A stretch of 64,000 nucleotides of DNA from an uncultured Clostridia bacterium (GTDB lineage: Bacteria > Bacillota > Clostridia > TANB77 > CAG-508). Positions 17,830-40,443 of the stretch are shown in pieces. The DNA lies in contig CANRES010000002.1 in assembly GCA_947629625.1 (NCBI GenBank), forward strand, positions 1,652-65,651, written 5' to 3'. The notes under the pieces are model-generated. The model did no database searches and was not told the origin of the DNA. It saw nothing but the letters and a program-made list of their open reading frames with translations. Each line of letters opens with the position of its first letter. Positions within the stretch are counted from its first letter, which is position 1. The position numbers and the translations under genes were made by a program.

Positions 17830-17839
17830 AGAGGAATAA

Positions 17840-18918: not shown

Positions 18919-18957
18919 TCAAAAAGTAAAATTTTATACATAGGAGGTTTAATTAAA

Positions 18958-20757
18958 TTGAAGAATGGTTTAAAAACACTAGCAATGTGGATTATAATAG
19001 GTATAATTTTCATTGTAGTATTATCGTCAATATTAGATAACTCAGATACAAAAATGAGTTATTCAGATTTAATTAATAAAATAGAAACAGGAGAAGTTAC
19101 AGAAATAGAAATAGCATCAGGTGGAGAAAAAGCATACGTAAAATTAAAAGGAGATAATGTTGAAAAAGAAGTAAATATTCCAAGTCTAGATAGTTTTGTA
19201 GATTATTCAACAGACTATTTAAAAGCAGGAACAATAAAATTATCAGAAAAATCTGAATCAATATTTATAACAATATTAGGATTATTATCACCATTTGGAA
19301 TATTGATAATATTCTTTATATTCTGGTTCTTTATGATGAATAGTCAACAAGGAGGAAATAAAACAGTATCATTTGGAAAAAGCAAAGCAAGAGTAATGAC
19401 ACCAGCAGATAAAAACAAAATAACATTTGCAGACGTAGCTGGAGTTGACGAAGAAAAAGAAGAATTAGAAGAAATAGTAGAATTTTTAAAAAATCCAAAG
19501 AAATTTACAGACATGGGAGCAAGAATACCAAAAGGAGTATTATTAGTAGGTCAACCAGGAACTGGTAAAACATTACTTGCAAAAGCAGTTGCAGGAGAAG
19601 CAGGAGTACCATTCTTCATAATGAGTGGATCAGACTTCGTAGAAATGTTTGTTGGTGTTGGTGCAGCAAGAGTAAGAGATTTATTTGAACAAGCAAAGAA
19701 AAATGCTCCATGTATAATATTTATAGATGAAATAGATGCAGTAGGACGTCAAAGAGGAGCAGGACTTGGTGGAGGACATGATGAAAGAGAACAAACATTA
19801 AATCAAATGTTAGTTGAAATGGACGGATTTGGAACAAACGAGGGAGTTATAGTTTTAGCAGCAACAAATAGACCAGATGTATTAGATAAAGCATTATTAA
19901 GACCTGGTAGATTTGATAGACAAATAGTAGTTTCAGCACCAGATGTACTAGCAAGAGAACAAATATTAGAAGTACATGCAAGAAAGAAAAGATTATCAGA
20001 AGATGTAGATTTAAAAACAATAGCAAAAAATACATCAGGATTTTCAGGTGCAGACCTTGAAAATGTATTAAATGAAGCCGCATTATTAGCAGCAAGAAGA
20101 AATAAAAATGAAATAGGAATGGCAGAAATAGAAGATGCTATGGTAAAAGTTACAATGGGACCTGAAAAGAAAACAAGAGTAAGAAGTGAAAAAGAAAATA
20201 AATTAGTTGCATACCATGAAGCAGGTCATGCAGTAGTTAGTAGATTTTTACCAACACAAGATGCTGTACATCAAATATCAATAGTACCAAGAGGTATGGC
20301 TGGTGGTTATACTATGTATAGACCAACAGAAGATAAATCATTTATGTCAAAATCTGAAATGGAAGAAAACATAGTATCACTTTTAGGTGGTAGAGTTGCA
20401 GAACAATTAATATTAAATGATATATCAACAGGAGCAAGTAACGATATAGAAAGAGCATCAAAAATAGCAAGAGCAATGGTAACAAAATACGGTATGAGTG
20501 ATAGAATAGGTGCAATAATGTTTGGCTCAGACCAAGAAGAAGTATTTTTAGGTAGAGATTTTGCTCAATCTAAAAATTATTCTGAAGAAACAGCAGCAGT
20601 TATAGATATAGAAACTAAAAAGATTATTGATATAGCATATAAAAGAGCAGAAGAAATTTTAACACAAAATATAGATAAATTACATCAAGTAGCCCAAATT
20701 CTTCTTGAAAAAGAAAAAATCGATGGAGAAGAATTTGATAAAATATTTGAAAATTAA
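18958..20757 (+). CDS. ftsH: ATP-dependent zinc metalloprotease FtsH
   Basis: Walker [12 protein letters not shown] region, HEAGHA zinc motif; TTG start 10 nt after GGAGG. Confidence 0.9.
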
Positions 20758-25510: not shown

Positions 25511-25566
25511 TTGTATAGGAAAAATCGAAGATTTTTCTGTATACAAAAAGGTTAATTTAAATTGGG

Positions 25567-25632
25567 CTGTGCATATTTGCGAAGCAAAATGCACATGTGT
25601 GCGTCGAAAGCTTTGCTTTCGCTAACGCACAA
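25567..25632. other. GC-rich nested-palindrome element (possible structured RNA or island boundary element)
   Basis: gcgaagcaaa...tttgctttcgc outer stem, gcacatgtgtgc inner palindrome, aaagcttt palindrome. Shares the TGTGCATAT 9-mer and the GCACA(T) motif with the 20760-20845 region. Confidence 0.35.
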
Positions 25633-25836: not shown

Positions 25837-25992
25837 ATGTTAAATGATGATATTTGTAAAAAAAGAGATGAATTAAACAAAAGTATATTAGATGGAAAAG
25901 ATTACAAAATAATTTATCAATTGAGCGTAGAACTAGATGAATTAATTGCAAAATACTATAAAGAAGAAAAAGAAACAGTAATTTCTATATAA
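25837..25992 (+). CDS. Spo0E-like sporulation regulatory protein (51 aa); not in the ORF track
   Basis: MLNDDICKKRDELNKSILDGKDYKIIYQLSVELDELIAKYYKEEKETVISI. RBS aaaggaagtgg. The SxELDxLIxxYY motif is typical of Spo0E-family aspartyl-phosphate phosphatases. Confidence 0.5.
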   Translation: MLNDDICKKRDELNKSILDGKDYKIIYQLSVELDELIAKYYKEEKETVISI

Positions 25993-26033
25993 TAAATTAA
26001 TATATAAAAATGAGAAAAAATCTCTAAAACATA

Positions 26034-26061
26034 TTTACATTTTGAAAAAATATGGTATAAT
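26034..26061 (+). promoter_or_regulatory. Sigma-A-like promoter TTTACA-N16-TATAAT upstream of the AbiL-like pair
   Basis: Sequence match only. Confidence 0.35.
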
Positions 26062-26105
26062 AATTGAAGGAAAATATATAATAATTATATATTATGGAGG
26101 AAAAT

Positions 26106-27437
26106 ATGTTATTAGAATTTAAAATAAAAAATTACAAATCATTTTATAATGAAACTGTAATAAGCATGTTTGCAAATAGTGCAAAAAGAGATTATACAGA
26201 ACGTCTAATCAAAATAAATAAAACTAGTAATAAAAAAGTATTACCGTCAATGGTAATATATGGAGCAAACGCAAGTGGTAAAACTTCTATAATTTCAGCA
26301 ATAAATTTGCTTAAACAGATAATAATAAATGGAACAATAAAAAAACAAATAAAAAATAAAGAAATACAAGAATTGGATATATGCTCTTTTATACATGACA
26401 ATAAGAAAATGAATGAACCAATGCATTTAGAAATTACATTTAAAACAAAAAATTATATATATAATTATGCCTTAGATATAGTTGCAACATATTTAAAAAA
26501 GGATAGAAAAATAGTTAATGAAGAACTAAATATTGTAGAATTTAAAAACATTGGCACATCCATTAAAGAAACAAAAACTAATATTTTTAAGAGAAACGAA
26601 AATAGTGTAGAAATAAATAAAAACAAAGAAATTATGAATATATTAGAGAAAAAAGAAAATTTTATAGATGAAGCAAATAATTTAGAAAAAAGATTAAGCG
26701 AAAATTTAGATAAAGAAGATTTATTTTTAACAGCAGGATTTAAATCAATGATAAATCTAAAAATGTCAAATGATGTGTTAAATTGGTTTCAAGAACAACT
26801 AATAACAGTAGTTGATTTTAACGAAAAAGAACCCTTAGTAAATTTTAATGATGAAAATAGTGAAGACATAATTGTATATAGAAATAAAATGTTAGATAAA
26901 CTTATAAAAATTGCAGATTTTGGACCACAAGAATTTGGATATATCAAAGATAATAGTACAGGTAAATATACGTTAAATTCATTTTATACACCAAAGGGAT
27001 CTAAAGCAGGTATAATTATAAATTCTAAAACTATTGAATCAAAAGGTACACTAAAATTAATTGATTTTTGGATTACATTTATGGAATACTTTAAAAAAGG
27101 TGGAGTGTTTATACTAGATGAATTAGATTGTTCAATACATCCAGAATTAATAGGAGGAATTATAGATTTATTCAATAATAAAGATATTAACATTAATAAT
27201 TCTCAATTAATTTTTAATACTCATAACCCATTATATTTACAAAAAAGATTTTTTAGAAGAGATCAAATAATGTTTGTGGAAAAAGATGAAGAAACATATA
27301 TGAGTAGTACTTATAAATTATCAGATTTTGATTTAAGAAATGATGTTAATTATATGAAAAATTATTTTGAAGGAAAATTCGGAGCACTTCCTTTTATAGA
27401 TTTTGAGTCAACTCTTAATAAAGAAGGGGTTGATTAA
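26106..27437 (+). CDS. AAA_21/ABC-type ATPase, AbiLi-like abortive-infection component
   Basis: MLLEFKIKNYKSF..., Walker A GANASGKTS, Walker B FILDELD and H-loop near the C-terminus. 1-nt gap to the RloB-like partner. Confidence 0.7.
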   Translation: MLLEFKIKNYKSFYNETVISMFANSAKRDYTERLIKINKTSNKKVLPSMVIYGANASGKTSIISAINLLKQIIINGTIKKQIKNKEIQELDICSFIHDNKKMNEPMHLEITFKTKNYIYNYALDIVATYLKKDRKIVNEELNIVEFKNIGTSIKETKTNIFKRNENSVEINKNKEIMNILEKKENFIDEANNLEKRLSENLDKEDLFLTAGFKSMINLKMSNDVLNWFQEQLITVVDFNEKEPLVNFNDENSEDIIVYRNKMLDKLIKIADFGPQEFGYIKDNSTGKYTLNSFYTPKGSKAGIIINSKTIESKGTLKLIDFWITFMEYFKKGGVFILDELDCSIHPELIGGIIDLFNNKDININNSQLIFNTHNPLYLQKRFFRRDQIMFVEKDEETYMSSTYKLSDFDLRNDVNYMKNYFEGKFGALPFIDFESTLNKEGVD

Positions 27438-28013
27438 ATGATAAAAAGAGAATATAGATGTTTTTTTGAAGGGCAACAAGAAAAAATGTATTTTGAACAT
27501 GTAGCAAAGAAAATAAAGGAAGTTAATCCAATAGTAAGTATAAAATTTAAACCAGTAGAAAAATTAATTGTTTTAGAGAAAAGTTCAACAGATGTACCAA
27601 AAATAGCGGTATTTGATTATGATATGAATAAAATAGAATTTGAAAGAAAAATAAAGATATGCAGGAAAACTAATATTTTATATTCTAATCTTAATTTTGA
27701 TTTATGGTTATTATTACATAAAGTGAATTTTAGTAAAAATGTTCAACATAATGATGCATATAAAAATTTAATAATAAAAAATTTTAATTTAAGAGAAAAT
27801 TGCAATATAAAAACTAAAGCTAATATGGAAAAAATATTAGAGCAAATTGATATAAAAGATATAAAAAATGCAATAAAAAATTCTGAGCAAATAATGAATA
27901 ACAAATTAGAGGAAGATAAAATAACTATTAGAAAAAATTTCTATTATTATGAAAATCCTTCAATGAATATAAATGAATTTTTTAAAAGACTTTTTGAAGA
28001 AATAAAAGTATAA
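27438..28013 (+). CDS. RloB-like/AbiLii-like protein (Toprim-like), partner of the AAA_21 ATPase
   Basis: N-terminus EYRCFFEGQQEKMYFEH resembles the RloB CEGxxTExxYF motif; translationally coupled to the upstream ATPase. Confidence 0.6.
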   Translation: MIKREYRCFFEGQQEKMYFEHVAKKIKEVNPIVSIKFKPVEKLIVLEKSSTDVPKIAVFDYDMNKIEFERKIKICRKTNILYSNLNFDLWLLLHKVNFSKNVQHNDAYKNLIIKNFNLRENCNIKTKANMEKILEQIDIKDIKNAIKNSEQIMNNKLEEDKITIRKNFYYYENPSMNINEFFKRLFEEIKV

Positions 28014-28025
28014 TGTAGAAAAATG

Positions 28026-28054
28026 TTGAAAAATAAAAAATAATCATATATAAT
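28026..28054 (+). promoter_or_regulatory. Promoter TTGAAA-N17-TATAAT for pilin-like gene 1
   Basis: aaaatgTTGAAAaataaaaaataatcataTATAAT. Confidence 0.5.
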
Positions 28055-28086: not shown

Positions 28087-28464
28087 ATGGTAAAAAAAAT
28101 AAGCATATTTTTAATAGTAATAACATTATTATTAACTATGATACCAATAAAAACATATGCATCAGGTTTAGCAACAGAAATAATAGATCCATCAACATAT
28201 GGTGCAGGAATAGAATCAACTAGGGATTCATCACAAGTTTTGGCAATAGTAAACCCAATATTAGGTGCTGTATATTACATAGGAATTTTTATATCAGTTG
28301 GAGCACTTATATTAATAGGAATAAAATATATGATGGGAAGTATAGAAGAAAAAGCACAATATAAAGAAACCTTATTTCCATATTTAATAGGTGCAGTATT
28401 ACTATTTGGAGGAATAAATATACTAAGAATAATATATAACATAGTAATAAAAACGATAAAATAA
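28087..28464 (+). CDS. VirB2/TrbC-like candidate T4SS pilin, paralog 1 (signal peptide + 2 TM)
   Basis: Signal peptide ...TYASG, then TM1, then YMMGSIEEKAQYKETLFPY loop, then TM2. Confidence 0.55.
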   Translation: MVKKISIFLIVITLLLTMIPIKTYASGLATEIIDPSTYGAGIESTRDSSQVLAIVNPILGAVYYIGIFISVGALILIGIKYMMGSIEEKAQYKETLFPYLIGAVLLFGGINILRIIYNIVIKTIK

Positions 28465-28494
28465 AGTAATATAACTATATTTTTCAAAAAAATG

Positions 28495-28523
28495 TTGAAA
28501 TATTAAAAAAAATGTTGTATAAT
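28495..28523 (+). promoter_or_regulatory. Promoter TTGAAA-N17-TATAAT for pilin-like gene 2; same AAAATGTTGAAA -35 region as gene 1
   Basis: 12/12 identity of aaaatgttgaaa with 28020-28031. Confidence 0.5.
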
Positions 28524-28557
28524 TAATTAAAGTGTGATTTAATGGGAGATGAGATTA

Positions 28558-28959
28558 ATGAAAAAAAATTTAATAATACAAGTAATAACCATACTATTAA
28601 TAATCTCTACATTAATATTTTACATACCAACAATATCAAAAGCATCAATAATAGGAGATGCATTTGAAAATGGAGATGGCTTTTTACAAACACAACCAGA
28701 TCAAACTATTCAAGATATGGTTGATGATACCAAAATAATAAAAACATCAAAAGATATATATAATCTTTTAATGATAATTGCAATAGTAGTAGCATCAATA
28801 GTAGTACTAGTATTAGGAATACAATTTATGGCAGGTAGTGTAGAACAAAAAGCAAAAGTTAAAGAAATGCTAATGCCATTTGGAATAGGATGCGTAGTTA
28901 TATTTGGCTCACTAGTAATATGGCGAATAGTAATATCAGTAATGTCATCTATAATGTAA
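28558..28959 (+). CDS. VirB2/TrbC-like candidate pilin, paralog 2
   Basis: Same architecture: ...LGIQFMAGSVEQKAKVKEMLMPFGIG.... ATG at 28558 sits 9 nt after GGGAG; the track's 28549 start is too close to the RBS. Confidence 0.55.
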   Translation: MKKNLIIQVITILLIISTLIFYIPTISKASIIGDAFENGDGFLQTQPDQTIQDMVDDTKIIKTSKDIYNLLMIIAIVVASIVVLVLGIQFMAGSVEQKAKVKEMLMPFGIGCVVIFGSLVIWRIVISVMSSIM

Positions 28960-29032
28960 GTTTTTAATGTTTTCTTATTAGAGTATAAGAAAGTTAAAAT
29001 ATAAATAAAAGAATAAAAAAGGAGGAAAAAAT

Positions 29033-29452
29033 ATGAAAAAATCAGTAAAAATAATGTCTATATTAATGATAGCATTAATGGTAATATCTGTTGCATTACC
29101 TATATTTGCAACTACAATTGATGGAGTAGAAGTAAGACCAGATATGAGTTCAATACAAGGTTCAACAGCAGGTAATAGTTTATCAAAAGTATTAGGTGCA
29201 TTAAGATACATAGGAATATTTGCAGCAGTAGCAATTCTTATGGTACTTGGTATTAAATATATGATGGGAAGTGCAGAAGAAAAAGCAGAATATAAGAAAA
29301 CTTTAATACCTTATATGTTAGGTGCAATACTATTATTTGCAGCATCATTCATAGTAGGAATAATAGCAGATGCAACAAACAAAGTTACACAAACATCTTC
29401 ATTAATTGAAAGTGGAAAAGTTTTAGCATCAACAATAAAAGCATTAGTATAA
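29033..29452 (+). CDS. VirB2/TrbC-like candidate pilin, paralog 3
   Basis: ...LGIKYMMGSAEEKAEYKKTLIPYMLGAILLF...; RBS aaaggagg. Confidence 0.55.
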   Translation: MKKSVKIMSILMIALMVISVALPIFATTIDGVEVRPDMSSIQGSTAGNSLSKVLGALRYIGIFAAVAILMVLGIKYMMGSAEEKAEYKKTLIPYMLGAILLFAASFIVGIIADATNKVTQTSSLIESGKVLASTIKALV

Positions 29453-29461
29453 TATTAAAAG

Positions 29462-29495
29462 AAAGAAATTCCTTTATGGAATTTCTTTTTTTTTT
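29462..29495 (+). terminator. Rho-independent terminator after the pilin triplet
   Basis: gaaattcc-ttta-ggaatttc followed by T10. Confidence 0.75.
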
Positions 29496-29518
29496 GAAAA
29501 ATTTAACAAAACTACAAA

Positions 29519-29552
29519 AAAATACATTTAAAACAAAATGTATTTTTTTTTC
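29519..29552 (+). terminator. Second tandem terminator
   Basis: aatacattt-aaaacaa-aatgtatt followed by T9. Confidence 0.65.
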
Positions 29553-29640: not shown

Positions 29641-29988
29641 ATGGGAACATATAACATACCTAGAAACGTTAAAGGAGAAGGAAGAATATTATATATATTT
29701 TCAAAAAAAGGTATCATATATACAATGGTAGGAGCATTAATAGGAACACCTTTTTATTTATTATTCAATTCAATAGGAATAACATTTGTAGGAGTAATAA
29801 TAATAATTCTTTTAGCATTAATAGGATTTATAATAGGAACATTTAAGGTACCAGAAACAACAGCATTTGAAATAACAAGAAAAACCGGCGGAGAAAATAT
29901 AGATGATGTAATAAAAAGAGCCTTCAAATTCTATAAAAATAGAAGAAGAATATATATCTATAAAGAGGAGGAAACAAAAGATGAGTAA
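29641..29988 (+). CDS. PrgI/VirB3-like small 2-TM conjugal transfer protein
   Basis: 115 aa with two central TMs; sits two genes upstream of the VirB4-like ATPase, as in pCF10 and Tn916-type loci. Confidence 0.55.
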   Translation: MGTYNIPRNVKGEGRILYIFSKKGIIYTMVGALIGTPFYLLFNSIGITFVGVIIIILLALIGFIIGTFKVPETTAFEITRKTGGENIDDVIKRAFKFYKNRRRIYIYKEEETKDE

Positions 29989-31273
29989 TAACGAATTAAC
30001 AAGTTTATTAACAACAATATTAATAGCAATGGTATTTGTATTATTTTTTCTAATAATGATATTTGTTTTCATAAAAATAAAAAATGATAAAAAGAAAAAG
30101 ATGCCGATGCAAACAGAAAATAAAGGAACAAATACAGCAACACAAGGATATAATAAACAATCAATTTTTAATTTTATGGAATTTGATAAAATTGAAGATA
30201 ATATGATAATTCAAAAAAACGGAACAAAATACTTAATGGTAGTTGAATGTCAGGGAGTAAATTATGATTTAATGTCAGGAATAGAAAAAACCTCAGTAGA
30301 AGAAGGCTTTCTACAATTTTTAAACACATTAAGACACCCAATACAAATATACACACAAACAAGAACAGTAAACTTAGAAAAAAGTATATCTACATATAAA
30401 TCTAGAATAGACCAACTAGAAGCAGATTTAAGAGCAAAAGAAGCAAATTATCAAGCAAAAGCAAAATCTGGAAGATATACAAAAGAACAACTAGATAAAG
30501 AATTTTATGAACTTACGAAACAAAGAAATCTATATGAATATGGAAGAGATGTAATCTTTAATACAGAAAGAATGAGTACAAATAAAAACGTACTAAACAA
30601 AAAATACTATATAATAATTCCATACTATCCAGAAGATTTAGGAAATAACAATTTTGATAAAGAAGAAATCAAAAACATAGCATTTTCTGAACTATACACA
30701 AGAGCACAATCAGTTATAAGAACGTTATCAGCATGTGGAATAAACGGAAAAATATTAGGCTCAAACTTACTTGCAGAACTATTATATGTAGCATATAATC
30801 GTGATGAAGAAGAAATATATGGACTTGATAAAGCAATAGCAGCAGGATATGACGAACTATATTCAACAGCACCAGATGTACTAGATAAGAAAATGAAGGA
30901 ATTAGATAAACAAATTGAACAAAAAGCAATGGATATGGCAAATGATGCAGTAATTCAAGCAAAATCAGATAAACAAAAGAGAATTGAAGAAAAAGAAAAA
31001 TCAATGAACGATTTGATATCACAAATGGCAAAATTAATTATAGAAGAAAACAAAACATTTGTAGGAGAAGATATTGCAGAAGCAGCAGTTGATAAAATAG
31101 ATGGTACAGAAGAACAAGAAGATATCGAAGAAATTGAAGAAGAAGAGGAAATAGCACCACCTAAAAAACGAGGAAGAAAAAAAGCAAGCACAGAAAATAC
31201 AGAAGAAGGAGGAAAAGTAAATGATGTCAAAGAAAAAAAGAAAACAACAAGAAGAACTACAAAGACAGCTTGA
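29981..31273 (+). CDS. Membrane-anchored coiled-coil protein of unknown function, with an acidic stretch and a basic KKRGRKK tail
   Basis: N-terminal TM (aa 8-32), long coiled-coil-like segments, C-terminal EEIEEEEEIAPPKKRGRKKAS.... Overlaps the virB4-like start by 53 nt. Confidence 0.5.
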   Translation: MSNNELTSLLTTILIAMVFVLFFLIMIFVFIKIKNDKKKKMPMQTENKGTNTATQGYNKQSIFNFMEFDKIEDNMIIQKNGTKYLMVVECQGVNYDLMSGIEKTSVEEGFLQFLNTLRHPIQIYTQTRTVNLEKSISTYKSRIDQLEADLRAKEANYQAKAKSGRYTKEQLDKEFYELTKQRNLYEYGRDVIFNTERMSTNKNVLNKKYYIIIPYYPEDLGNNNFDKEEIKNIAFSELYTRAQSVIRTLSACGINGKILGSNLLAELLYVAYNRDEEEIYGLDKAIAAGYDELYSTAPDVLDKKMKELDKQIEQKAMDMANDAVIQAKSDKQKRIEEKEKSMNDLISQMAKLIIEENKTFVGEDIAEAAVDKIDGTEEQEDIEEIEEEEEIAPPKKRGRKKASTENTEEGGKVNDVKEKKKTTRRTTKTA

Positions 31274-33188
31274 AACAAGAAATAGTATAGACATTAGCAT
31301 ACTAAAAAAGAAAACAATTAAAGATTTAATTGCACCATCTGGAATAGACGCTTCAAATATAGACCATTTAAAAATAATATCAAATACAAATAGATTTGCA
31401 AGAAGTTTCTTTGTATCAACACTACCTAGAATGTGTACGTTCCCAGAATTGTTTAGAGATATGTATATGTTTGGAGATATAAACACATCAATATATATAA
31501 ACCCAATACCAGAAGCAAGATCTCAAAACGAATTAAATAGAGTAATAAATGAACTAGAAACAGAAAGAATTGTAGCAGCAGATAGAGGAAATATAAATAG
31601 AGAAAGTACAGTATCTCAAAAAAGATTAGAAGCAGAAGAATTAAGAGACGAAATTGCAGCAGGATTTAATAAATTATTTGAAGCATCAATTGTTGCAACA
31701 CTATTTGCATACAGCCTAGAAGATTTGGACAAATACACAAAACTATTAGCAACAGAAATGTCAAAATCATTAGTTGGAGTAAAAAGTGCTTGGGGAATGC
31801 AAGAAGAAGCATTTAAATCTAATTTACCATTAATGAATGACCAAATAAAGAAAACACATACATTTGATAGACGTTCAATGGGAACAGTATTCCCATTCAC
31901 AACATCAGAAGTTGGACATCCAACAGGAATACCATTAGGATTTAATAAACAAACTGGAGTACCAATATTATTTGATAACTTCCACTCATCACTAACAAAC
32001 TATAACATGGTTATATTTGCAAAATCTGGTGCTGGTAAATCTGTTACAATGAAAACTTTAATATCAAGGTCAGCAGTATTAATGGGAATAGAAAGTTTAG
32101 CACTAGATGCAGAAGGTGAATATTCAATAGTTGCTGAAAGTTTAGGAGGAATTAATGTTGTATTAAGTCCAAATTCAAAAACAGTAATAAATTTATTTGA
32201 TATTGAATTAGAAACAGCAAAAGATGAAATAACAGGTAAAGAAAGACAAGTTTTAAATGTAGAAAATAAAGTAGAAGACGTAACACAAGCGCTACTTACA
32301 ATGGCAAGAGGAAGTACAAGAAGTCAAGAAGTAAATGAACTTACAAAACAAATAATTGCAGAAGCAGTAGCAGAAGAATATGCAAGATTAGGAATTACAA
32401 GTGATCCAAATAGCTTATATGTACAAAACAATACATTTGATGGAAATGCATTATATAAAGAAAAGAAAGAAATGCCTACAATTGGTAGTTGGTATAAACT
32501 AATAGAAAGAAAAGCAAAAGAAAATACAAATAAAGATTACAGTTTTCATTATAGTTACTTATTAAAAGTTATGAAACAATACATAAGAGCATATGATGGA
32601 CAAATGGCATATTTTGATGGACAATCTACATTTGATTTATTAGAGGGAGCACCTTTTATAAATCTAGATATATCACAACTAGAAGAAAGATTTGCAAGAC
32701 CATTAGCACAACAAATTCTATTATCATGGATTTGGGAAAAATATGTTAAGAAAAACAGTGAAGATAGAACAAAGGCTTCTAAAAAAAGAGTAATAGTAGA
32801 CGAAGCGTGGATGCTATTACCTTACCCAGAAGCAGTAGATTTCTTAAATACAATGGCTAGACGTGCAAGAAAAAGAAATGTATCATTAGCAATAATTTCA
32901 CAAAGATTTCAAGATTTTTATGAAAAACCAGAAGCACAAGCAGTATTAACATCTTCTGATACAAAACTATTTTTAGCACAAGATAAATCAGAAATACAAT
33001 ATTTAAAAGAAGTATTTAAACTAAGTGAAGGAGAAGCAGGATTTTTAGTAACTTGTTTAAAAGGAGAAGGATTATTAAAAGTTGGTGCAGATACAGCAAT
33101 ATTGCAAATTACACCAACAAAGAAGGAATTTGAATTTGTTGAAACAAATTTAAACAAATTGGTAGGAATGCGAAAAGCAAGAGAATAG
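31221..33188 (+). CDS. VirB4-family T4SS ATPase (TraE/TrsE/TcpF-like)
   Basis: Walker A FAKSGAGKSVTMKT, Walker B RVIVDEAWML. 655 aa, close to the size of the Gram-positive VirB4 homologues as I recall them (pIP501 TraE). Confidence 0.8.
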   Translation: MMSKKKRKQQEELQRQLETRNSIDISILKKKTIKDLIAPSGIDASNIDHLKIISNTNRFARSFFVSTLPRMCTFPELFRDMYMFGDINTSIYINPIPEARSQNELNRVINELETERIVAADRGNINRESTVSQKRLEAEELRDEIAAGFNKLFEASIVATLFAYSLEDLDKYTKLLATEMSKSLVGVKSAWGMQEEAFKSNLPLMNDQIKKTHTFDRRSMGTVFPFTTSEVGHPTGIPLGFNKQTGVPILFDNFHSSLTNYNMVIFAKSGAGKSVTMKTLISRSAVLMGIESLALDAEGEYSIVAESLGGINVVLSPNSKTVINLFDIELETAKDEITGKERQVLNVENKVEDVTQALLTMARGSTRSQEVNELTKQIIAEAVAEEYARLGITSDPNSLYVQNNTFDGNALYKEKKEMPTIGSWYKLIERKAKENTNKDYSFHYSYLLKVMKQYIRAYDGQMAYFDGQSTFDLLEGAPFINLDISQLEERFARPLAQQILLSWIWEKYVKKNSEDRTKASKKRVIVDEAWMLLPYPEAVDFLNTMARRARKRNVSLAIISQRFQDFYEKPEAQAVLTSSDTKLFLAQDKSEIQYLKEVFKLSEGEAGFLVTCLKGEGLLKVGADTAILQITPTKKEFEFVETNLNKLVGMRKARE

Positions 33189-33205: not shown

Positions 33206-36200
33206 ATGAAGCTTTTTACTAAGAAAAATTTAATTCAAAAGATGACAATAGTTTTGGTAATTCTAATGCTATTTAATTTTATAATGCCAAATTTCGTAAG
33301 AGCAGAAACAGCGATAGAAACAGCAGGAAAAGTAATTTTCACACCAGTTAGGGGTTTCTTAGTAATGTGTGGAGATGGTCTTATGACTGGGCTACAATAT
33401 TTACTAAAAACAAACGAAAAAGCAGTAATACCATATAGTGATCAAATAGAAGAAAGTAAGCAATTTATTGGGGAAGAAGATGATAGAAATTATTTTGAAT
33501 ATTATCTGGGAGATATTGTACTAGATGTATATGGTAATGCTACGGGTCAAGATAAACCTAATTTTAAATATACACCAAAATTTATTTTTGAAAATAAAAT
33601 AAAATCATTTGATATAAATTTTATTAGCCCATCAAGAGCAAACACTAATGGAGAAGCAAAAGAAAATGAAAATAGTGAAGAAAATCAATCAAGTTATTCT
33701 GATGAAACATGGTATGAAGATTATGTATATACAGTAGAAAAATGCCAAGAAAAATATAATACTTCAACTGATGAAACAGAAAAAGGTGTAGCAAGAACAG
33801 TATTACGTCGTTTAGGAGCATGGGATGATACAACAAATAATGTAGGTTATACAGATGAAACCGCTAAAAATGCTGTAAGTGAACTTTCACAAAGATATTA
33901 TAATGGTGCAACTATGTATGAAATGTTAGGAGCAGATCCAACCTCAAAAGATGCAACAATGAAAAAATATGTTGAATTTCTAGATAGTGGAATAGGTACA
34001 TATGTAATTGGAACTGTTGCTGAATATCATAAAGTAGCAGGAAATGAAACAAAAGAAACATTAGATTATGATGCAATAGCACCAGTAAATGCACTACATG
34101 ATATGATAGCAACATGGTATAAAATATTAAGAAATATTGCATTAATATTTTTACTATCAATTTTAGTATATATAGGAATTAGAATAATACTATCAAGTAC
34201 AGCAGCAGATAATGCAAAATATAAAAAAATGCTTGTAGATTGGGTAGTTGCATTATGTATTTTATTTGCATTACATTATATAATGGCAGGTATAAATGGG
34301 GCAGTTAATATGGTTGTAGATGCATTTACACCATCAAATAGTTCTGATACTGATGCTATATTTGGAAATGTAAGAACACAATTAATGTCTGAAAATTTAT
34401 CTGACCAACTTTTTTATACAGTATTATATCTAGTATTGGTTATCTATACATTAGTATTTACATTTTATTATTTGAAAAGGGTTGTTTATGCAGCATTTTT
34501 AACATTAATTGCGCCATTAGTAGCATTAACTTACCCATTAGATAGAATGGGTGATGGAAAATCACAAGCATTTAATATGTGGTTAAAGGAATACATTGCG
34601 AATGTAATTATTCAACCAGTGCATTTATTGATATATACTGTATTAATAGGTTCTGTACTTTCATTATCAGTAAAAAATCCATTATATGCAATTGTTGTAA
34701 TGGGAGCAATGATGCCAGCAGAAAAATTCATTAGAGAGATGTTTGGATTAAATAGCCAAAAAGGATTAAGCCCAGCAGGAAGCTTTGCAGGTGGAGCACT
34801 TGCTGCATCAGCAATGAATAAATTATTATCAAAACCACCTAGAATGCATCCTCGTGGTGAACATGGTAAATCAAAAGATAATGGCAGTGAAAACGAAAAT
34901 GAAACAAAACGAAATAAAATTAAAATGAAAGATAGTATGTCTGATATAGCAAATTCAATAGTAGGACAAGATGTGCCAGATGTAACCAATAATAGAATAA
35001 AAGATAACACAAATAGCACAGAAAATAAACCAGATGTAGATAATGGAGATTTTCCAGATAGTAGAGAACTTGATAATCAAGAGCAAGCAAAAAATGAAGA
35101 TATATACTTACCAAATAATAAAGATACAAGTAATATGGATGAAATAGCTTCACCATCACAAGAAGAAATTGATGCAGCTTTAAATCCACCTATGGATGAT
35201 GATAGAGTTACTATGGATGAAATAGCACCACCATCACAAGAAGAAATTAATGCGACTTTAAATTCACCTATGGATAAAAATACAAGTACTATGGATGAAA
35301 TAGCACCACCACCACAAGAAGAAATTGATGCAACTTTAAATCCACCTATGCATAATAACAGACAAATCAACAGTCAAGAAGATAAATTACAGCAAGGAAA
35401 CAATAACTTGAACATGCCTAATAAAGCAACTATACCAATGAGTAAAGCAGAACAAAAACAAGCAAAGAAAACATTGAAGAAACAAAAAAGAGCTGCTCAA
35501 TATGCAGCATCAAAAAGATATTATACTAAATTAACTAAACAAAGATTAAGAAAATTAGGAAAATTAGGTAAAGGTTTAGCAAGAGGAGCATTAAAAACAG
35601 CAGGTGCTGCAACGGGAATAGCATTAGGTGCAACAGCAGGAATAGTAGGAGGAATTGCTACTGGTGATGTAGGAAATGCATTAAAATTTACTGGAGCTGG
35701 TGCATTAGCAGGTGCAAAATTTGGTTCTGTAATAGGTGATGATGTTTATAATATTGGAGCAAGAGGTGGATCTGGTGTAGCGAGTGCAATTAATAGTCAA
35801 AAAGAAATGAAGCAAATGTGGCAAAACGACTTATACAATACTAATGAAGAATATAGAAAAAAAGTGGATCAAAAAGAAGCAAAGAAATTAATAAAATCAG
35901 CAGAAACAACAGCAATGATACAACAAAGATTTGGAAGGGGTAAAGTAAAAGAAGCACAAAAGGCTATGATGGAATATAATGAACGAGGAATAGATAATGT
36001 TGATACAATGCTTAACTGTTTTGGACTAGAACAAGGAATAGATAGACATGGAAATAGATTTACTGAACCGGGTAGTATCGATCGTAATCAAGCAATTATG
36101 GCAGGAAGAATTGCAGAACAATATGATGTAAATAATGCTTCTGGCAGAAAATCTAGTAAAGATGAATTAGAGCATCAATTAGCAAATAGCGTATATAATG

Positions 36201-36448
36201 GATCTTTTGATGGTAAAGAATATACAATAACAAGAGACCAAGCATTTGATAGAGTAAAAGGAAATGTAAATAATATTATGAAACTAGCGGATATGGCACA
36301 AGGAATTGATACAAAACATGCAGGCTTAGCAGATCAATTAGAAGAATCAAATAAAGCTAAACAAAAACGTACTAGAGCAAAAGAAGTTAGAGAGAGAATG
36401 GAAGTTGAAAATGAAGTTGCAAGAGAAAATAACAACAAAAACAACTAA
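33206..36448 (+). CDS. VirB6/TrbL-like polytopic membrane protein with a large N-terminal extracytoplasmic domain, three tandem 26-aa Pro-rich repeats, a Gly/Ala-zipper segment and a C-terminal soluble domain
   Basis: Signal/TM at the N-terminus, about 6 TMs at aa 300-510, repeats MDEIAPPSQEEIDATLNPPM x3, glycine zipper GAATGIALGATAGIVGGIATG. Confidence 0.6.
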   Translation: MKLFTKKNLIQKMTIVLVILMLFNFIMPNFVRAETAIETAGKVIFTPVRGFLVMCGDGLMTGLQYLLKTNEKAVIPYSDQIEESKQFIGEEDDRNYFEYYLGDIVLDVYGNATGQDKPNFKYTPKFIFENKIKSFDINFISPSRANTNGEAKENENSEENQSSYSDETWYEDYVYTVEKCQEKYNTSTDETEKGVARTVLRRLGAWDDTTNNVGYTDETAKNAVSELSQRYYNGATMYEMLGADPTSKDATMKKYVEFLDSGIGTYVIGTVAEYHKVAGNETKETLDYDAIAPVNALHDMIATWYKILRNIALIFLLSILVYIGIRIILSSTAADNAKYKKMLVDWVVALCILFALHYIMAGINGAVNMVVDAFTPSNSSDTDAIFGNVRTQLMSENLSDQLFYTVLYLVLVIYTLVFTFYYLKRVVYAAFLTLIAPLVALTYPLDRMGDGKSQAFNMWLKEYIANVIIQPVHLLIYTVLIGSVLSLSVKNPLYAIVVMGAMMPAEKFIREMFGLNSQKGLSPAGSFAGGALAASAMNKLLSKPPRMHPRGEHGKSKDNGSENENETKRNKIKMKDSMSDIANSIVGQDVPDVTNNRIKDNTNSTENKPDVDNGDFPDSRELDNQEQAKNEDIYLPNNKDTSNMDEIASPSQEEIDAALNPPMDDDRVTMDEIAPPSQEEINATLNSPMDKNTSTMDEIAPPPQEEIDATLNPPMHNNRQINSQEDKLQQGNNNLNMPNKATIPMSKAEQKQAKKTLKKQKRAAQYAASKRYYTKLTKQRLRKLGKLGKGLARGALKTAGAATGIALGATAGIVGGIATGDVGNALKFTGAGALAGAKFGSVIGDDVYNIGARGGSGVASAINSQKEMKQMWQNDLYNTNEEYRKKVDQKEAKKLIKSAETTAMIQQRFGRGKVKEAQKAMMEYNERGIDNVDTMLNCFGLEQGIDRHGNRFTEPGSIDRNQAIMAGRIAEQYDVNNASGRKSSKDELEHQLANSVYNGSFDGKEYTITRDQAFDRVKGNVNNIMKLADMAQGIDTKHAGLADQLEESNKAKQKRTRAKEVRERMEVENEVARENNNKNN
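35135..35368 (+). repeat. 3 x 78-bp in-frame tandem repeat inside the VirB6-like gene
   Basis: atggatgaaatagc(t/a)(t/c)cacca(t/c)cacaagaagaaatt... occurs at 35135, 35213 and 35291. Confidence 0.8.
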
Positions 36449-36478
36449 AAATAATAACTAAATTTAATGGGGGCAAAA

Positions 36479-36979
36479 ATGTTAGGAACACATCCAATTG
36501 TTAGATATTTAAATCAAAATAGAAAACAAATATTTACAGTAATTATAGCAGTAGCAATATTTTTCCTAATATTAAGAATTTTAAATAATATAGAAGAAAG
36601 AAAAATAAAACAAGAACAAGAAAAAACAAATACATATTATACAGAAATAACAAATGCAAACGAACATGCAAAAATAATAAAACAATTTCTAGAATATTGT
36701 AAGAGTGGAGATGCAAGTAATGCATATAAATTACTTGCATCCAAAACAAAAGAAGAAAAATATCAAAATCAAACTGAATTTAACAATAACTATATTTTAA
36801 AATTCTTTTCAGAAAACAAAAACTACACAATAACATACAATTCACAAAATAATAATCAATATTACTATATTATAAAAATAACTAATGACATAATATCAGC
36901 GGGAAAAGTTGATAAAGAACCAGTAATACAAGATTTTATAATTACTAATGAAAATGGAGAAGACAAAATTATAATTTAA
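36479..36979 (+). CDS. Membrane-anchored single NTF2-like domain protein (VirB8/TcpC-like candidate)
   Basis: N-terminal TM; ...CKSGDASNAYKLLASKTKEEKYQNQTEF... is the NTF2/SnoaL-like pattern shared with the 38.5-39.8 kb protein. Confidence 0.45.
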   Translation: MLGTHPIVRYLNQNRKQIFTVIIAVAIFFLILRILNNIEERKIKQEQEKTNTYYTEITNANEHAKIIKQFLEYCKSGDASNAYKLLASKTKEEKYQNQTEFNNNYILKFFSENKNYTITYNSQNNNQYYYIIKITNDIISAGKVDKEPVIQDFIITNENGEDKIII

Positions 36980-37130: not shown

Positions 37131-38477
37131 ATGGACTTTTTAGAACAAGCAAAAAGTGCATTCAAAAATGCATATTTAACAGGAATAAAAAAGAAATTAA
37201 TAATGTTAGGAATAGGAATACTAGTATTTATAATATTAATAACAATACTAGTAGGTGTAATATTAGTAGAAGACGAAGAAAGCCAAATTGGAAATTATAA
37301 TAGTTTAGCATCATACTCATTTTGGTGGCCAATAGGAAGTAGAGAAACAACATTAGATGCAGATGGAAATGAATACGCAATTAAAGAGCCATCAGCAATA
37401 ACTATAAGTAGTGATTACAAAATAAGAAATCAAGAAAGACCAGACCATGACGGAATAGATATAAATAGTGATGATGCTCAAGATGGAGAAAAAAAAGGAG
37501 AAGGTTACCATTATATTATTGCATCAAAAGATGGAACAGTAATTACATCTCATTTTTCAGGTCAAAATGGTGTAGAAGGTTCAGCAGGAGAATACATAGC
37601 AATAGACCATGGAGATGGATTTGTTACAAAATATATGCATATGTATGAAGGAAGTCGTACAGTAGAGGTAGGAGATACAGTAAAACAGGGACAAATTATT
37701 GGTATTATGGGAAATACAGGCTATTCTACAGGAGCACACTTACACTTTCAAATAGAACTTGATGGGGAACCAGTAGATCCTTTGCAATATGTAAGTGCAG
37801 AATTCCCAAGAGGTGGATCAAGCATTGATCCATTTACAACAAGTATTTCAAGGGAAGACTTTATACAATGTATTCAACAATATTCACAAGAAGCAAATTA
37901 TCAAATGAATATGGCACAATATGCAGGAGAATTTTATGATATATGCACAGAAAAAGGAGTAAGTGCTGAATTAGCATTTGCACACTCATGTTTAGAAACA
38001 GAATTTGGAACATATTTTATAGCACAAAATAACTATTTTGGTTATGCAGCATATAATAGTAATCCAAATTCAGCAACAAGTTATTCAACACCACAAGAAT
38101 CAATAAGAAGTTATTGTGATTGGGTAATAAACAATGCAACAATGGACACAAGTGCATATCAAGCAAACCTTCAAAGAGCGGAAGAATTATCACCATATAA
38201 TTCTATGCTAGTAGGCACACCAGAAACAAATGTATATGTATTATATATTAGATATGCTCAACTAGACGCTACACATGAAGGAGACTATGCAACAATAGAT
38301 CGTAACAATATAAATAGTGTTAAATATTTAGGAACATATTATTTCACATATTATATGTATGGAGAAATGTGTAACCATTTACCGGGAGAACCTACATCAG
38401 ATCAAGAAAAGGCAGATTATGCAGTATATTCTACAAATAAAAGAATAGAAATAATAAATAGTATATTTGGAAAATAA
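37131..38477 (+). CDS. Membrane-anchored bifunctional peptidoglycan hydrolase: M23 peptidase + glucosaminidase/FlgJ-like domain (functional VirB1 analogue)
   Basis: M23 motifs HDGIDI and HLHFQIELDGEPVDP; C-terminal ...ELAFAHSCLETEFG... is glucosaminidase-like; N-terminal TM. Confidence 0.7.
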   Translation: MDFLEQAKSAFKNAYLTGIKKKLIMLGIGILVFIILITILVGVILVEDEESQIGNYNSLASYSFWWPIGSRETTLDADGNEYAIKEPSAITISSDYKIRNQERPDHDGIDINSDDAQDGEKKGEGYHYIIASKDGTVITSHFSGQNGVEGSAGEYIAIDHGDGFVTKYMHMYEGSRTVEVGDTVKQGQIIGIMGNTGYSTGAHLHFQIELDGEPVDPLQYVSAEFPRGGSSIDPFTTSISREDFIQCIQQYSQEANYQMNMAQYAGEFYDICTEKGVSAELAFAHSCLETEFGTYFIAQNNYFGYAAYNSNPNSATSYSTPQESIRSYCDWVINNATMDTSAYQANLQRAEELSPYNSMLVGTPETNVYVLYIRYAQLDATHEGDYATIDRNNINSVKYLGTYYFTYYMYGEMCNHLPGEPTSDQEKADYAVYSTNKRIEIINSIFGK

Positions 38478-38493
38478 ATTAGAGGTGGGGGAA

Positions 38494-39837
38494 TTGAAAA
38501 AAATAAAAATACTCATAATTATTACTAGTATAATTTCTATATTACTTATATTTGCAATTATTATATTAAATATTAATAGTAAGGGAGAAGAAAATAATAA
38601 TAATTTAAATATTAACAATAACATAAGTAATATGATAGGTAATACAACAAGTAATATAGTAAATAATGTACAAGGTAATTTAATAAATAATAACGTACAA
38701 GAAAATAACATAAATATAGGGAGTACAGAAATAAAACCACAGCCTGTAAAATCAAGAGAAGATTTTTACACAGTAAAATCTTGTATTGATGAATATATTA
38801 ATTATATTGTAGCAAACAATAATGAAGCATTATATAACATATTAGATAAATATTATCTTGACAAAAATAATATAGATAAAAATAATATTTTAGAAAAATT
38901 AGTAAAAATAAATACATACCAAGTATTTAATCCAGAAAGAATGAATTATGTTGAATTAAATAACAAACAAATATATATGGTTTATGGAAAAATTAGAGAG
39001 GATAAACTAAATGAAAGAGCAAATGAGGTTGATTTTAATTTAACAGTAACAATAAATAAACAAAACAATAGTTATTCAATAATACCAGAAATAATTAATG
39101 AAACAACATCATATTCTTTAATTGGAAATAACACAAGAACTAAATATAATTTATATTCAACTGTTAATATAGATAATAAAACAATGGCAAATATTTATTT
39201 TGTAGATTATAAAACAAAATTACTATATAATCTTCAAAACGCATACGATTTATTAGATGAAAATTATTCTAAAAAAAGATTTAATGGTTATTCAAATTTT
39301 TATCAGTATGTACAAGACAACATAAATAAAATCAATAGAGCAAACTTAACAAAATATTCAATAACAAATGAAGGAAATAATACAATTTTTACATGTATAG
39401 ATCAATATAATAATTATTATATATTTGAAGAAACTGCAATAATGCAATATAAGGTTATGTTAGATAATTACACTATTGACAGTAATGAATTTGTAACAAA
39501 ATATAGTTCAGCATCATTTCAAGAAAAAATGGAATTAAATATACAAAAATTCATAAAAATGATAAATTCAAAAGATTATGAAAATGCTTATAATCTTTTA
39601 AATACAGAATTTAAAAATAATAATTTTGCAGACTTACAACAATTTATAAACTATGTAACATCATCATTTTATAACTACAATGATGTAAAATTTAATACTT
39701 TTTCAACACAAGGTGATATTGGAATATATGAAATTAATATTAATGGAGTAGTAAATGATATTGATGTTACACAAATAAAAACTATCATAATGAAACTAGG
39801 CACTGGAACAGATTTTGAAATATCATTTGATATATAG
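38494..39837 (+). CDS. Membrane-anchored Asn-rich protein with two tandem NTF2-like domains (TcpC/VirB8-like candidate)
   Basis: TM at the N-terminus; two ...(E/N)AY(N)(I/L)L... domains (NNNEALYNILDKYY..., KDYENAYNLLNTEFK...). TTG at 38494 after agaggtggggg is preferred over the track's overlapping 38467 start. Confidence 0.45.
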   Translation: MKKIKILIIITSIISILLIFAIIILNINSKGEENNNNLNINNNISNMIGNTTSNIVNNVQGNLINNNVQENNINIGSTEIKPQPVKSREDFYTVKSCIDEYINYIVANNNEALYNILDKYYLDKNNIDKNNILEKLVKINTYQVFNPERMNYVELNNKQIYMVYGKIREDKLNERANEVDFNLTVTINKQNNSYSIIPEIINETTSYSLIGNNTRTKYNLYSTVNIDNKTMANIYFVDYKTKLLYNLQNAYDLLDENYSKKRFNGYSNFYQYVQDNINKINRANLTKYSITNEGNNTIFTCIDQYNNYYIFEETAIMQYKVMLDNYTIDSNEFVTKYSSASFQEKMELNIQKFIKMINSKDYENAYNLLNTEFKNNNFADLQQFINYVTSSFYNYNDVKFNTFSTQGDIGIYEININGVVNDIDVTQIKTIIMKLGTGTDFEISFDI

Positions 39838-39846
39838 GGAGGAAAA

Positions 39847-40443
39847 ATGGAAGAAAAAAATATTAATGAAATAAATAAAGAAATATTACAATTCAAAAAA
39901 GATATAGAAGAAAATATAAAACAAGCAAATAATCAAAATCAAGAAAACAACTCAGAGGAAAACGAGGAATTAGAACTTACAGAAATATTAAATATAACAT
40001 ATTATGATGAATTTGATTTTAAAACGAAATTTAAGGATGTAATATTAATGTTAGAAGATGTATATATTGTAGAATTAGAAAAATCAAATTCTACAACTTA
40101 TGAAATATACACAAAAGATGCAATTCATAAAATAGCACAAATAGATATAGAAGGAAAAATAACATTTATAGATAGAGCAATAGAAGATAATACAACAATA
40201 GAAGAAATGAAAAAATTAAATGAAGATAAAAAAACTATATCATATACAAAAGAAGAATTAGACGAATTAGAAGAAGGTTCAAAAAAGGAAATAGATAAAG
40301 AAAAAAATGAAGAAGGAACAAATCCAGATGTGAACTTAAATGATATATCAGATTCTGCAAGAGAGAAAAAAGAAGAAATGGACAAAGAAAATGACAGAGA
40401 AAGAACATTAGATGAAAACGTAAGAAAATACTATGAAAATTAA
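39847..40443 (+). CDS. Highly acidic hypothetical protein (198 aa), last gene of the operon
   Basis: E/D/N-rich; RBS gggaggaaaaatg. Confidence 0.45.
   Translation: MEEKNINEINKEILQFKKDIEENIKQANNQNQENNSEENEELELTEILNITYYDEFDFKTKFKDVILMLEDVYIVELEKSNSTTYEIYTKDAIHKIAQIDIEGKITFIDRAIEDNTTIEEMKKLNEDKKTISYTKEELDELEEGSKKEIDKEKNEEGTNPDVNLNDISDSAREKKEEMDKENDRERTLDENVRKYYEN

Follow-up and report, generated by a model that had tools for sequence, protein, structure and literature searches.

Three tandem VirB2-like pilin genes at the head of a secretion cluster

We analysed a 64-kb stretch of AT-rich DNA (25% GC; hereafter, the window) on contig CANRES010000002.1 of an uncultured Clostridia bacterium of the TANB77 lineage, in which three small genes stand in tandem on the plus strand at the head of a gene cluster for a type IV secretion system (T4SS). 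Pilin paralog 1 (28087..28464) encodes a protein of 125 amino acids (aa) with a variable N-terminus, paralog 2 (28558..28959) one of 133 aa and paralog 3 (29033..29452), which adjoins prgI and represents the conserved pilin type, one of 139 aa. All three open reading frames (ORFs) are present where the original prediction, made from the letters of the sequence, had placed them, with the start of gene 2 moved. This ORF could formally open at 28549, but a GGGAG at 28544-28548 lies 9 nt 5' of the ATG at 28558 and 0 nt from the ATG at 28549, and 133 aa is also the length called independently on an identical metagenome contig, so we take ATG 28558 as the true start.

Each protein has three hydrophobic segments by hydropathy, corresponding to a signal peptide and two transmembrane (TM) segments, with a polar, variable spacer between the signal segment and TM1 and a conserved loop between TM1 and TM2 (YMMGSIEEKAQYKETLFPY, FMAGSVEQKAKVKEMLMPF and YMMGSAEEKAEYKKTLIPY in genes 1, 2 and 3, respectively). 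Both the topology that had been proposed and the proposed loop motif were borne out, the latter being reproduced exactly by the alignment. The signal segments end in an A-x-A-like site, with cleavage predicted from sequence between TYA and S, SKA and S, and IFA and T in genes 1, 2 and 3. In the same alignment, gene 2 is 32% and gene 3 46% identical to gene 1. An AlphaFold2 (AF2) model of the gene 3 product consists of a signal helix and a helical hairpin (helices 45-78 and 81-138), with a mean predicted local distance difference test (pLDDT) score of 72.7.

Profile searches place the three proteins in the VirB2/TrbC pilin superfamily, as had been predicted. Relative to the curated gathering cut-offs (27.9 bits for PF04956, TrbC; 26.6 bits for PF18895, T4SS_pilin), gene 3 scored above both (T4SS_pilin 36.7 bits, TrbC 36.6 bits) and gene 2 above one (T4SS_pilin 28.3 bits; TrbC, 25.6 bits, was under its cut-off); gene 1 also matched both models, at scores that we weigh below. 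All 30 of 30 aligned family members matched PF04956 and PF18895 at E <= 1e-3 (best E = 1e-20 and 2e-15). A database search with the pilin returned 4149 homologues, the few named ones being called 'TrbC/VirB2 family protein [Clostridia bacterium]' at NCBI and 'VirB2 component (pilin)' at JGI; the pilin family itself is not new, and databases already label Clostridial members TrbC/VirB2. Against PDB sequences, the top match of the family profile was TrwL, the VirB2 pilin of R388, at a marginal but colinear E = 0.1. Weak matches were also obtained to the Mbov_0395 family NF045849 (gene 1 E = 7.5e-5, gene 3 E = 3.4e-5), and none of the three genes matched T4SS_CagC (PF16943) at E <= 1.

To place these genes among relatives, we searched 185,579 species-representative genomes by tblastn (E <= 1e-3) and found a pilin relative encoded in 497 species representatives (497 stretches). 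Unless another total is given, counts of related loci refer to the best 79 of these 497. PrgI was detected in 76/81 loci and VirB4 in 73/81, most of the remaining loci being short contigs. Such linkage bears on whether the three genes could instead encode small membrane proteins from other families (holins, bacteriocin immunity proteins or Maff2) that have the two-TM topology alone in common with pilins. A two-TM helical hairpin is indeed generic, and structure searches gave generic helical matches alone. We nevertheless hold this explanation to be extremely improbable: the Maff2, holin and immunity-protein families, all named in the original prediction, are absent from the Pfam matches of the three genes even at E <= 1, TrbC and T4SS_pilin match every family member tested, and the great majority of the 81 loci carry the linkage to prgI-virB4. 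Together, these three observations effectively refute it.

Machinery genes downstream

The pilin genes lie directly upstream of prgI/virB3 and virB4, in agreement with the predicted membership of a Gram-positive-type T4SS. The plus-strand genes that follow encode a PrgI/VirB3-like protein (29641..29988; 115 aa, two TM segments; Pfam PrgI 31.5 bits, cut-off 27), a protein in the TrsD/TraD position (29981..31273; 430 aa, N-terminal TM segment; precomputed Pfam PF26593 TraC-like), a VirB4-family ATPase (31221..33188; 655 aa; Pfam P-loop_TraG, AAA_10 and DUF87), an extended VirB6/TrbL-like polytopic membrane protein (33206..36448; 1080 aa, six predicted TM segments), a bitopic protein that is weakly assigned as TraH-like (VirB8-like) (36467..36979; 170 aa, one N-terminal TM segment) and a cell-wall hydrolase in the VirB1/TraG role (37131..38477; N-terminal TM segment; Peptidase_M23 85 bits, Glucosaminidase 37.8 bits). 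Two accessory ORFs end the cluster (38467..40443, plus strand), encoding a 456-aa protein with an N-terminal TM segment and a 198-aa acidic protein; they have no significant family match in Pfam or NCBIfam and are rarely detected in related loci. The first gene past the cluster encodes a housekeeping D-Ala-D-Ala carboxypeptidase. VirB5, VirB7, VirB9 and VirB10 are absent from this system.

We compared these proteins by a phmmer-type search with those of plasmid pRE25 and of Heliorestis, whose cluster is described below; E-values for these two sources, that for TraE aside, refer to a 20-sequence set. The TrsD-position protein matched its Heliorestis counterpart (E = 1.7e-14) and pRE25 TraD (E = 0.048); its gene always stands between prgI and virB4 in related loci, and it has no homologue among PDB sequences. 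VirB4 scored 215 bits with the NCBIfam CD1110 family, under the cut-off of 325, and 189 bits with the VirB4 of Mycoplasma integrative conjugative elements (ICEs), and it matched the VirB4 of PDB 4AG5 (E = 8e-28) and, colinearly, pRE25 TraE (E = 4e-16). The 170-aa TraH-like protein, found in 48/81 loci, matched pRE25 TraH (E = 2.8e-4), and the hydrolase matched the SLT+M23 hydrolase of Heliorestis (E = 2.7e-11).

The VirB6-like protein matched pRE25 TraL of the TrbL family (E = 1e-6), a 680-aa protein of Heliorestis (E = 4e-7) and the NCBIfam pLS20_p028 family (E = 2e-7). Its residues 298-379 align to the whole pilin hairpin when compared with the pilin profile by hhalign (probability 78%, E = 1.7e-5), with, for example, AADNAKYKKMLVDW opposite AEEKAEYKKTLIPY. 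Such a pilin-like hairpin fits a templating platform and echoes the VirB2/VirB6 similarity of Ced and Agrobacterium (PMC9905601). The equivalent 500-aa VirB6-like protein of related locus L090 also has a weak T4SS_pilin match.

The order pilins-PrgI-TrsD-VirB4 is colinear with TraB-TraC-TraD-TraE of pIP501/pRE25, and equivalents of TraL, TraH and TraG are also present. TrsD has been reported in one MPF_FATA subclass only, that of pRE25/pIP501 (PMC12102498). With family membership, the signal peptide and hairpin topology and the head-of-cluster position in place, we consider it likely that the three genes encode paralogous subunits of the VirB2/TrbC pilin superfamily in a pIP501/pGO1-like (MPF_FATA) T4SS, acting as an exported structural component. 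That the three proteins would form a pilus is what we infer from these sequence features.

The main rival to this reading is a TraB/TrsB-like scaffold, in which the two-helix subunits would stay in the cytoplasmic membrane and nucleate or line the channel, with no extracellular pilus and with stoichiometric paralogs. The pilins occupy the traB position, upstream of the VirB3-TrsD-VirB4 equivalents, and the pilin profile is weakly similar to TraB by hhalign (E = 5.7e-4, probability 30%), with shared GN-x-I-x-G and IKY...EK motifs; by phmmer, the window pilins match TraB at E = 0.002-0.01 in the same 20-sequence set. TraB is essential for transfer, occurs in membrane and cell-wall fractions and contacts TraF/G/H/K/M, with no pilus reported (PMC9083827), and monoderm conjugation systems make no pili according to reviews (PMC12857230, PMC9905601). 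Yet T4SS_CagC is not among the matches of the window proteins, which are to TrbC and T4SS_pilin; pRE25 TraB (L084 21625-21957, annotated 'CagC family T4SS protein') reaches 58 bits with T4SS_CagC and E = 0.0025 with TrbC. We regard the scaffold as unlikely, and two further features of the locus, its transcription signals and its divergent copies, bear on it below.

Promoter-like sites and terminators

Two promoter-like sites of the form TTGAAA-N17-TATAAT, each matching 11/12 consensus positions on the plus strand, stand 5' of gene 1 (P1, 28026..28054) and gene 2 (P2, 28495..28523). A third, TTTACA-N18-TATAAT with TG (P3, 29561..29590, plus strand; 11/12, extended -10), precedes prgI and the machinery operon. 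Independent promoters had been predicted for all three pilin genes; this held for genes 1 and 2, and the promoter scan found no consensus-grade site 5' of gene 3. In a window this rich in AT, weak promoter-like matches occur at chance level (19 found versus 23.8 expected), whereas sites of at least 11/12 are enriched 3.6-fold on the plus strand (12 versus 3.3 +/- 1.8 expected), and several of these lie just 5' of gene starts when compared with the ORF list.

The predicted identical 12-mer AAAATGTTGAAA was found exactly at both 28020 and 28489 (28020-28031, in part included in P1, and 28489-28500 at P2), with an unrelated third copy at 56847, and it corresponds to a putative -35 TTGAAA within an A-rich context. 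Allowing up to one mismatch gave 13 matches, compared with 4.6 +/- 2.1 expected. The claimed recurrence of its core is real in that AAAATGTTG does recur, at 28509 rather than at 28508, one base off. As a family-wide regulatory box AAAATGTTGAAA was rejected: although the sister species described below conserves it, its 11-mer core AAATGTTGAAA occurs in 21/84 loci (20 of them Clostridial), and about 10 of these matches fall, by their coordinates, in the pilin-array region.

The spacer between genes 1 and 2 has no stable hairpin (z = +0.6), so transcripts from P1 are likely to read through past gene 1, and P1 and P2 probably both drive gene 3 by co-transcription. A hairpin in the spacer between genes 2 and 3 (28962..28999, plus strand; -7.9 kcal/mol, weak at z = -1.8) has no T-run behind it and could be an mRNA processing or stability element. 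Two tandem intrinsic-terminator hairpins, each with a T-run, close the unit as had been predicted (29457..29549, plus strand, at ~29457-29493 and ~29516-29549; -27 kcal/mol, z = -6.67, with 0/200 shuffles as stable). The first of them also appeared in the terminator scan, listed on the minus strand (29488..29462), and its A-run and T-run flanks indicate that it is bidirectional. The pilin unit is thereby predicted to be insulated from the machinery operon. High-consensus promoters and a double terminator suggest an abundant product and not a buried channel lining, which speaks, though not decisively, against the scaffold.

Evolution of the array

A sister species (L003; overall nucleotide identity 87.5%) served as comparison genome. 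P1, P2, the spacer between genes 2 and 3 with its hairpin, both terminators and P3 are almost invariant between the two: P1 is unchanged although the sequence further 5' differs by an insertion, and the spacer hardly changes although the coding sequence on its flanks has diverged. In the pilins, by contrast, substitutions are heavy in the mature N-terminal segments. In this single species pair, and with 20-35 codons per segment, the ratio of nonsynonymous to synonymous substitution rates (dN/dS) for genes 1, 2 and 3 was 2.7, 0.94 and 0.88 in the mature N-terminus and 0.20, 0.52 and 0.31 in the core (TM1-loop-TM2).

Related loci carry arrays of 2-6 pilin genes, with three in 33 loci and four in 35. 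At the last position, beside prgI, 77/79 loci carry a gene of the gene-3 type, and this type forms a single cluster (present in 79/80 loci). Upstream paralogs also cluster by position, so that pilin orthology is position-specific, with the last gene the most conserved, and within-locus paralog identity averages 36% across Clostridial loci. From the position-wise clustering and the ~36% identity within loci, we conclude that the duplications are old; the copies look specialised and not redundant. That the arrays hold 2-6 divergent copies whose mature N-termini evolve fast suggests a surface that is exposed and under selection, which again counts against a membrane-bound scaffold without being decisive. 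Fused 'double pilins' of 218-261 aa, with tandem TrbC/T4SS_pilin domains, occur in the arrays of some related loci (L089 10001-10657 and L090 9135-9920; P0007, P0008).

Distribution among relatives

The best 79 loci all derive from gut metagenome-assembled genomes (MAGs) labelled Clostridia, Clostridium or similar, with (M16-M16)-pilins-PrgI-TrsD-VirB4-VirB6-p170 as the common gene order. Because the same locus, with the same M16 peptidases upstream, recurs in many species at 40-60% protein identity, it points to vertical descent. In other Clostridial sub-lineages the locus stands beside SpoIIR, SpoIIE, Ddl, Dxs or MurA, and no mobility genes were found there within 10 kb of it.

Further afield, relatives by VirB4 (30-41% identity) still combine a small pilin-like gene with PrgI, TrsD, VirB4, the large TM protein and the hydrolase, the nearest named outgroups by VirB4 being Heliorestis (37% identity) and a Peptostreptococcaceae MAG. 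The cluster of the cultured Heliorestis convoluta (L083; CP045875.1 163887-185812) opens with a 109-aa pilin-like gene that scores 25.5 bits with T4SS_pilin (cut-off 26.6) and continues with PrgI, a TraC-like protein, VirB4, the 680-aa TM protein and the SLT+M23 hydrolase. Tad/Flp-type pilus genes lie behind it, and an S24 repressor, a sigma/NusG-like pair and a RecD2-like helicase lie ahead, which suggests that this cluster is in a mobile or prophage-like element.

Chromosomal context

Outside the cluster, the window is core chromosome. Upstream it carries genes for GdpP, L9, DnaB, TilS, FtsH, Crp and the two M16 peptidases; downstream come DacA, MurA, FtsQ/A/Z, SpoIIGA, sigma-E, MraZ/W and a penicillin-binding protein (PBP). 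The presence of SpoIIGA, sigma-E, FtsAZ and dcw genes identifies the host as a spore-forming Firmicute. A Pfam scan of the window ORFs, which covers the 64 kb, found no relaxase, type IV coupling protein (T4CP) or integrase. ARAGORN found no tRNA in the window and Rfam, at the gathering threshold, nothing, so neither a tRNA integration site nor a known riboswitch is present in the window. At the T4SS cluster, GC content and GC skew show no step, and neither megablast of 16 kb nor tblastn of pilin 3 gave a match among 72,556 plasmids.

These results bear on whether the cluster is the ordinary conjugative T4SS of an ICE. For the window, this was ruled out by the absence of relaxase, T4CP, integrase and compositional step, and an ICE with relaxase, T4CP and integrase genes beyond the window, or lost by recent decay, is in our view highly unlikely. 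VirB4 is closest to ICE and plasmid families (CD1110 and Mycoplasma ICE VirB4, at the scores given above), distant relatives in Heliorestis and on metagenome contigs stand beside a phage- or ICE-like S24 repressor, helicase and methylase, and the flanking genes vary between Clostridial sub-lineages. Weighing more heavily on the other side, both flanks consist of housekeeping, cell-division and sporulation genes, no tRNA lies in the window, GC content and skew are unchanged at the cluster, no plasmid matches it and the recurrence of the locus with its M16 peptidases argues for descent within the lineage. We regard the T4SS as chromosomally fixed, vertically inherited and apparently non-mobile.

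GdpP-L9-DnaB and TilS-FtsH (window 13999-20757) are origin-proximal genes in many Firmicutes. Nearly all window genes lie on the plus strand, and the cumulative GC skew climbs almost monotonically. From these gene sets, the strand bias and the rise in skew, the T4SS locus may be a leading-strand locus close to oriC, a position that has been reported for many T4SS loci of Patescibacteria. The skew dips in the region of a minus-strand ORF of the PD-(D/E)XK transposase family (12635-13234; PDDEXK_2 71 bits). No other gene resembling a mobile element was seen in the window, and this one lies 15 kb from the pilins.

A small Spo0E-like gene (25837..25992, plus strand; 51 aa, Pfam SpoOE-like 34 bits, cut-off 23) lies upstream of the array. 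In 20/69 related loci a homologue lies no more than 1.5 kb ahead of the first pilin gene, and in L082 a SpoOE-like gene is called at the equivalent position; this neighbour may hint at a link of the T4SS locus to sporulation-initiation control. Between it and P1 lies an insertion of ~2 kb (26020-28013), absent from the sister species, in which the flanks abut. It holds an AAA_21 ATPase (26094-27437) and an RloB-like protein (27438-28013), a pair of the OLD/abortive-infection type with its own promoter-like site (26034-26061). Further upstream, in the AT-rich intergenic region after the second M16 peptidase, is a GC-rich, hairpin-like segment (gggctgtgcatatttgcgaagcaaaatgcacatgtgtgcgtcgaaagctttgctttcgctaacgcaca, 25556-25632) with no Rfam match. 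Downstream of the cluster, a gene of the MurA/EPSP-synthase family is split (43349-43699 and 43857-44606, covering profile positions 1-106 and 173-417), and a similar split occurs in L089 (523-1113 and 1245-1799); this could reflect a frameshift, a pseudogene, an intervening element or a recurrent assembly error.

Proposed mechanism and its weight

VirB2 pilins are known to be inserted by Sec, cleaved by signal peptidase, held in a membrane pool and then extracted and stacked by the action of VirB4 and VirB6 (PMC12857230). By analogy, Sec would insert each pilin precursor of the window and signal peptidase I would cut it, leaving a mature hairpin with both termini outside (N-out/C-out) and the conserved charged loop GSxEEKAxYKK in the cytoplasm. 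A motor of VirB4, VirB3 and TrsD, together with the VirB6 platform, would pull the hairpins out and assemble them in a stack, as a tube or a short stalk, which would cross the wall through a peptidoglycan hole made by the M23/glucosaminidase hydrolase. Paralog 3 would be the conserved core subunit; paralogs 1 and 2, which evolve faster and whose exposed N-termini vary between species, would serve as minor or alternative subunits, and the strong own promoters and double terminator of the pilin unit would supply subunits in excess over the machinery. The function might be contact or adhesion, uptake of the Ced/ComB kind or exchange with neighbouring cells, among which we make no choice. Given that neither a relaxase nor a T4CP is encoded locally, plasmid transfer is less likely than a role outside conjugation.

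Several points weigh against this interpretation. The scores of gene 1 (TrbC 27.3 bits, T4SS_pilin 25.1 bits) are 0.6-1.5 bits under the cut-offs, and fold searches with the pilin model matched hundreds of unrelated helical proteins, so that the hairpin is generic and non-diagnostic. Polymerisation is wholly inferred. Among counterparts studied by experiment, the closest is TraB of pIP501, described as a protein of the membrane and cell-wall fractions with a proposed recruitment role and not as a pilus; its authors saw no VirB2 relation (PMC9083827). The promoters are consensus matches only, and exposed, fast-evolving mature N-termini are suggestive only, coming from short segments of one species pair. 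A relaxase or T4CP could be encoded outside the window, as is usual in Patescibacteria, where these genes generally lie elsewhere in the genome (PMC12102498). Finally, the M16-peptidase neighbour is kept in 22/53 loci with enough upstream sequence, so past mobility is possible.

Two reviews from 2025 hold that VirB2 pilins are absent from Gram-positive T4SSs (PMC12857230, PMC12102498), and Patescibacteria have been called unique among monoderms in their potential for conjugative-type pili (PMC12857230, December 2025; PMC12102498). The original prediction likewise stated that FATA loci lack VirB2, which agrees with these reviews and is incomplete in view of the Patescibacterial arrays, the CagC and weak TrbC matches of TraB and the names already used at NCBI. 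A full-text search found no paper describing VirB2 arrays in Firmicutes, and a literature search on TANB77 and type IV secretion found nothing relevant. The locus is a counter-example from classical Firmicutes: TrbC/VirB2-family arrays in a chromosomal T4SS, in at least 79 species-level gut Clostridia.

It is possible, although we put this forward tentatively, that a large clade of uncultured spore-forming gut Clostridia builds a true VirB2-type pilus or stalk across its thick Gram-positive wall by means of a domesticated T4SS without relaxase or T4CP, and that this system stands to the essential pilin-array T4SS of Patescibacteria as its sister in the Firmicutes, or as its donor. If so, the pilin array would be no Patescibacterial invention, hundreds of gut species would contradict the view that Gram-positive T4SSs lack a pilin, and the system would serve contact between cells, uptake or exchange and not conjugation. 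The locus also bears on whether Patescibacterial pilins arrived with an MPF_FATA system from Firmicutes, on a possible origin of TraB/TrsB, encoded by the resistance plasmids pIP501 and pGO1, as VirB2 proteins that have degenerated and on the role of T4SSs without a nearby relaxase in abundant uncultured gut bacteria. The single-pilin cluster of the cultured Heliorestis convoluta is a possible experimental entry point.

Comparison with known systems

The Mbov_0395 family of Mycoplasma ICEs (NF045849) offers a parallel from a wall-less monoderm, in which a small pilin-like gene lies beside a VirB6-like TM protein and VirB4. The window proteins score 22-23 bits with this family, far under its cut-off of 40, and Mbov_0395 genes are single and carried on mobile ICEs.

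Tandem, variable pilin paralogs, as found here, are also known from the Bartonella Trw system, with its multi-copy VirB2 protein TrwL (PMC12857230, PMC9905601). Trw, Ptl, ComB and archaeal Ced are T4SSs without a coupling protein, comparable to the present locus with no local T4CP or relaxase, and the roles proposed are adhesion for Trw and DNA uptake for ComB and Ced (PMC12857230, PMC9905601). Ced follows the same minimal logic of VirB2-like, VirB6-like and VirB4-like proteins, and its VirB2/VirB6 similarity is also found here; the VirB4 of the window, however, has negligible sequence similarity to CedB/CedD. The hosts of these four systems are diderm bacteria or archaea. The system here does without VirB5, VirB7, VirB9 and VirB10.

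TraB of pIP501/pRE25 and TrsB of pGO1/pSK41, both 'CagC family' proteins (PMC9083827), share with the window pilins a signal peptide, a two-TM hairpin and a conserved short loop, and TraB/TrsB likewise stand at the head of the mating-pair-formation block, before the VirB3-like, TrsD-like and VirB4 genes. In contrast to the array described here, TraB/TrsB are single-copy and encoded on plasmids with a relaxase and T4CP. Given that pRE25 TraB scores on T4SS_CagC and weakly on TrbC, classical Gram-positive conjugative plasmids do appear to encode a VirB2-superfamily-like protein, contrary to the reviews.

The closest described system, and the one that the locus most resembles, belongs to Patescibacteria such as Southlakia epibionticum ML1 and TM7x, whose T4SS likewise has a VirB2 array (PMC12102498, PMC12857230). 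Both are found in monoderm hosts, are chromosomal and usually lack a relaxase nearby, and both combine PrgI/VirB3, TrsD, VirB4 and VirB6, followed downstream by genes for an M23 peptidase or lysozyme. Patescibacterial arrays comprise 2-11 divergent VirB2-like genes that match the same Pfam models, PF04956 and PF18895, those of the Clostridia being shorter at 2-6 genes, and paralog identity is low in both (mean 25% in Patescibacteria; 32-46% in the window and a mean of 36% in Clostridial loci). The hosts differ, a Patescibacterial cell being an ultra-small epibiont and the host here a spore-forming Clostridium with a normal set of division and wall-synthesis genes, and, unlike in the Patescibacterial arrays, one paralog of the Clostridial array is strongly conserved and fixed in position.

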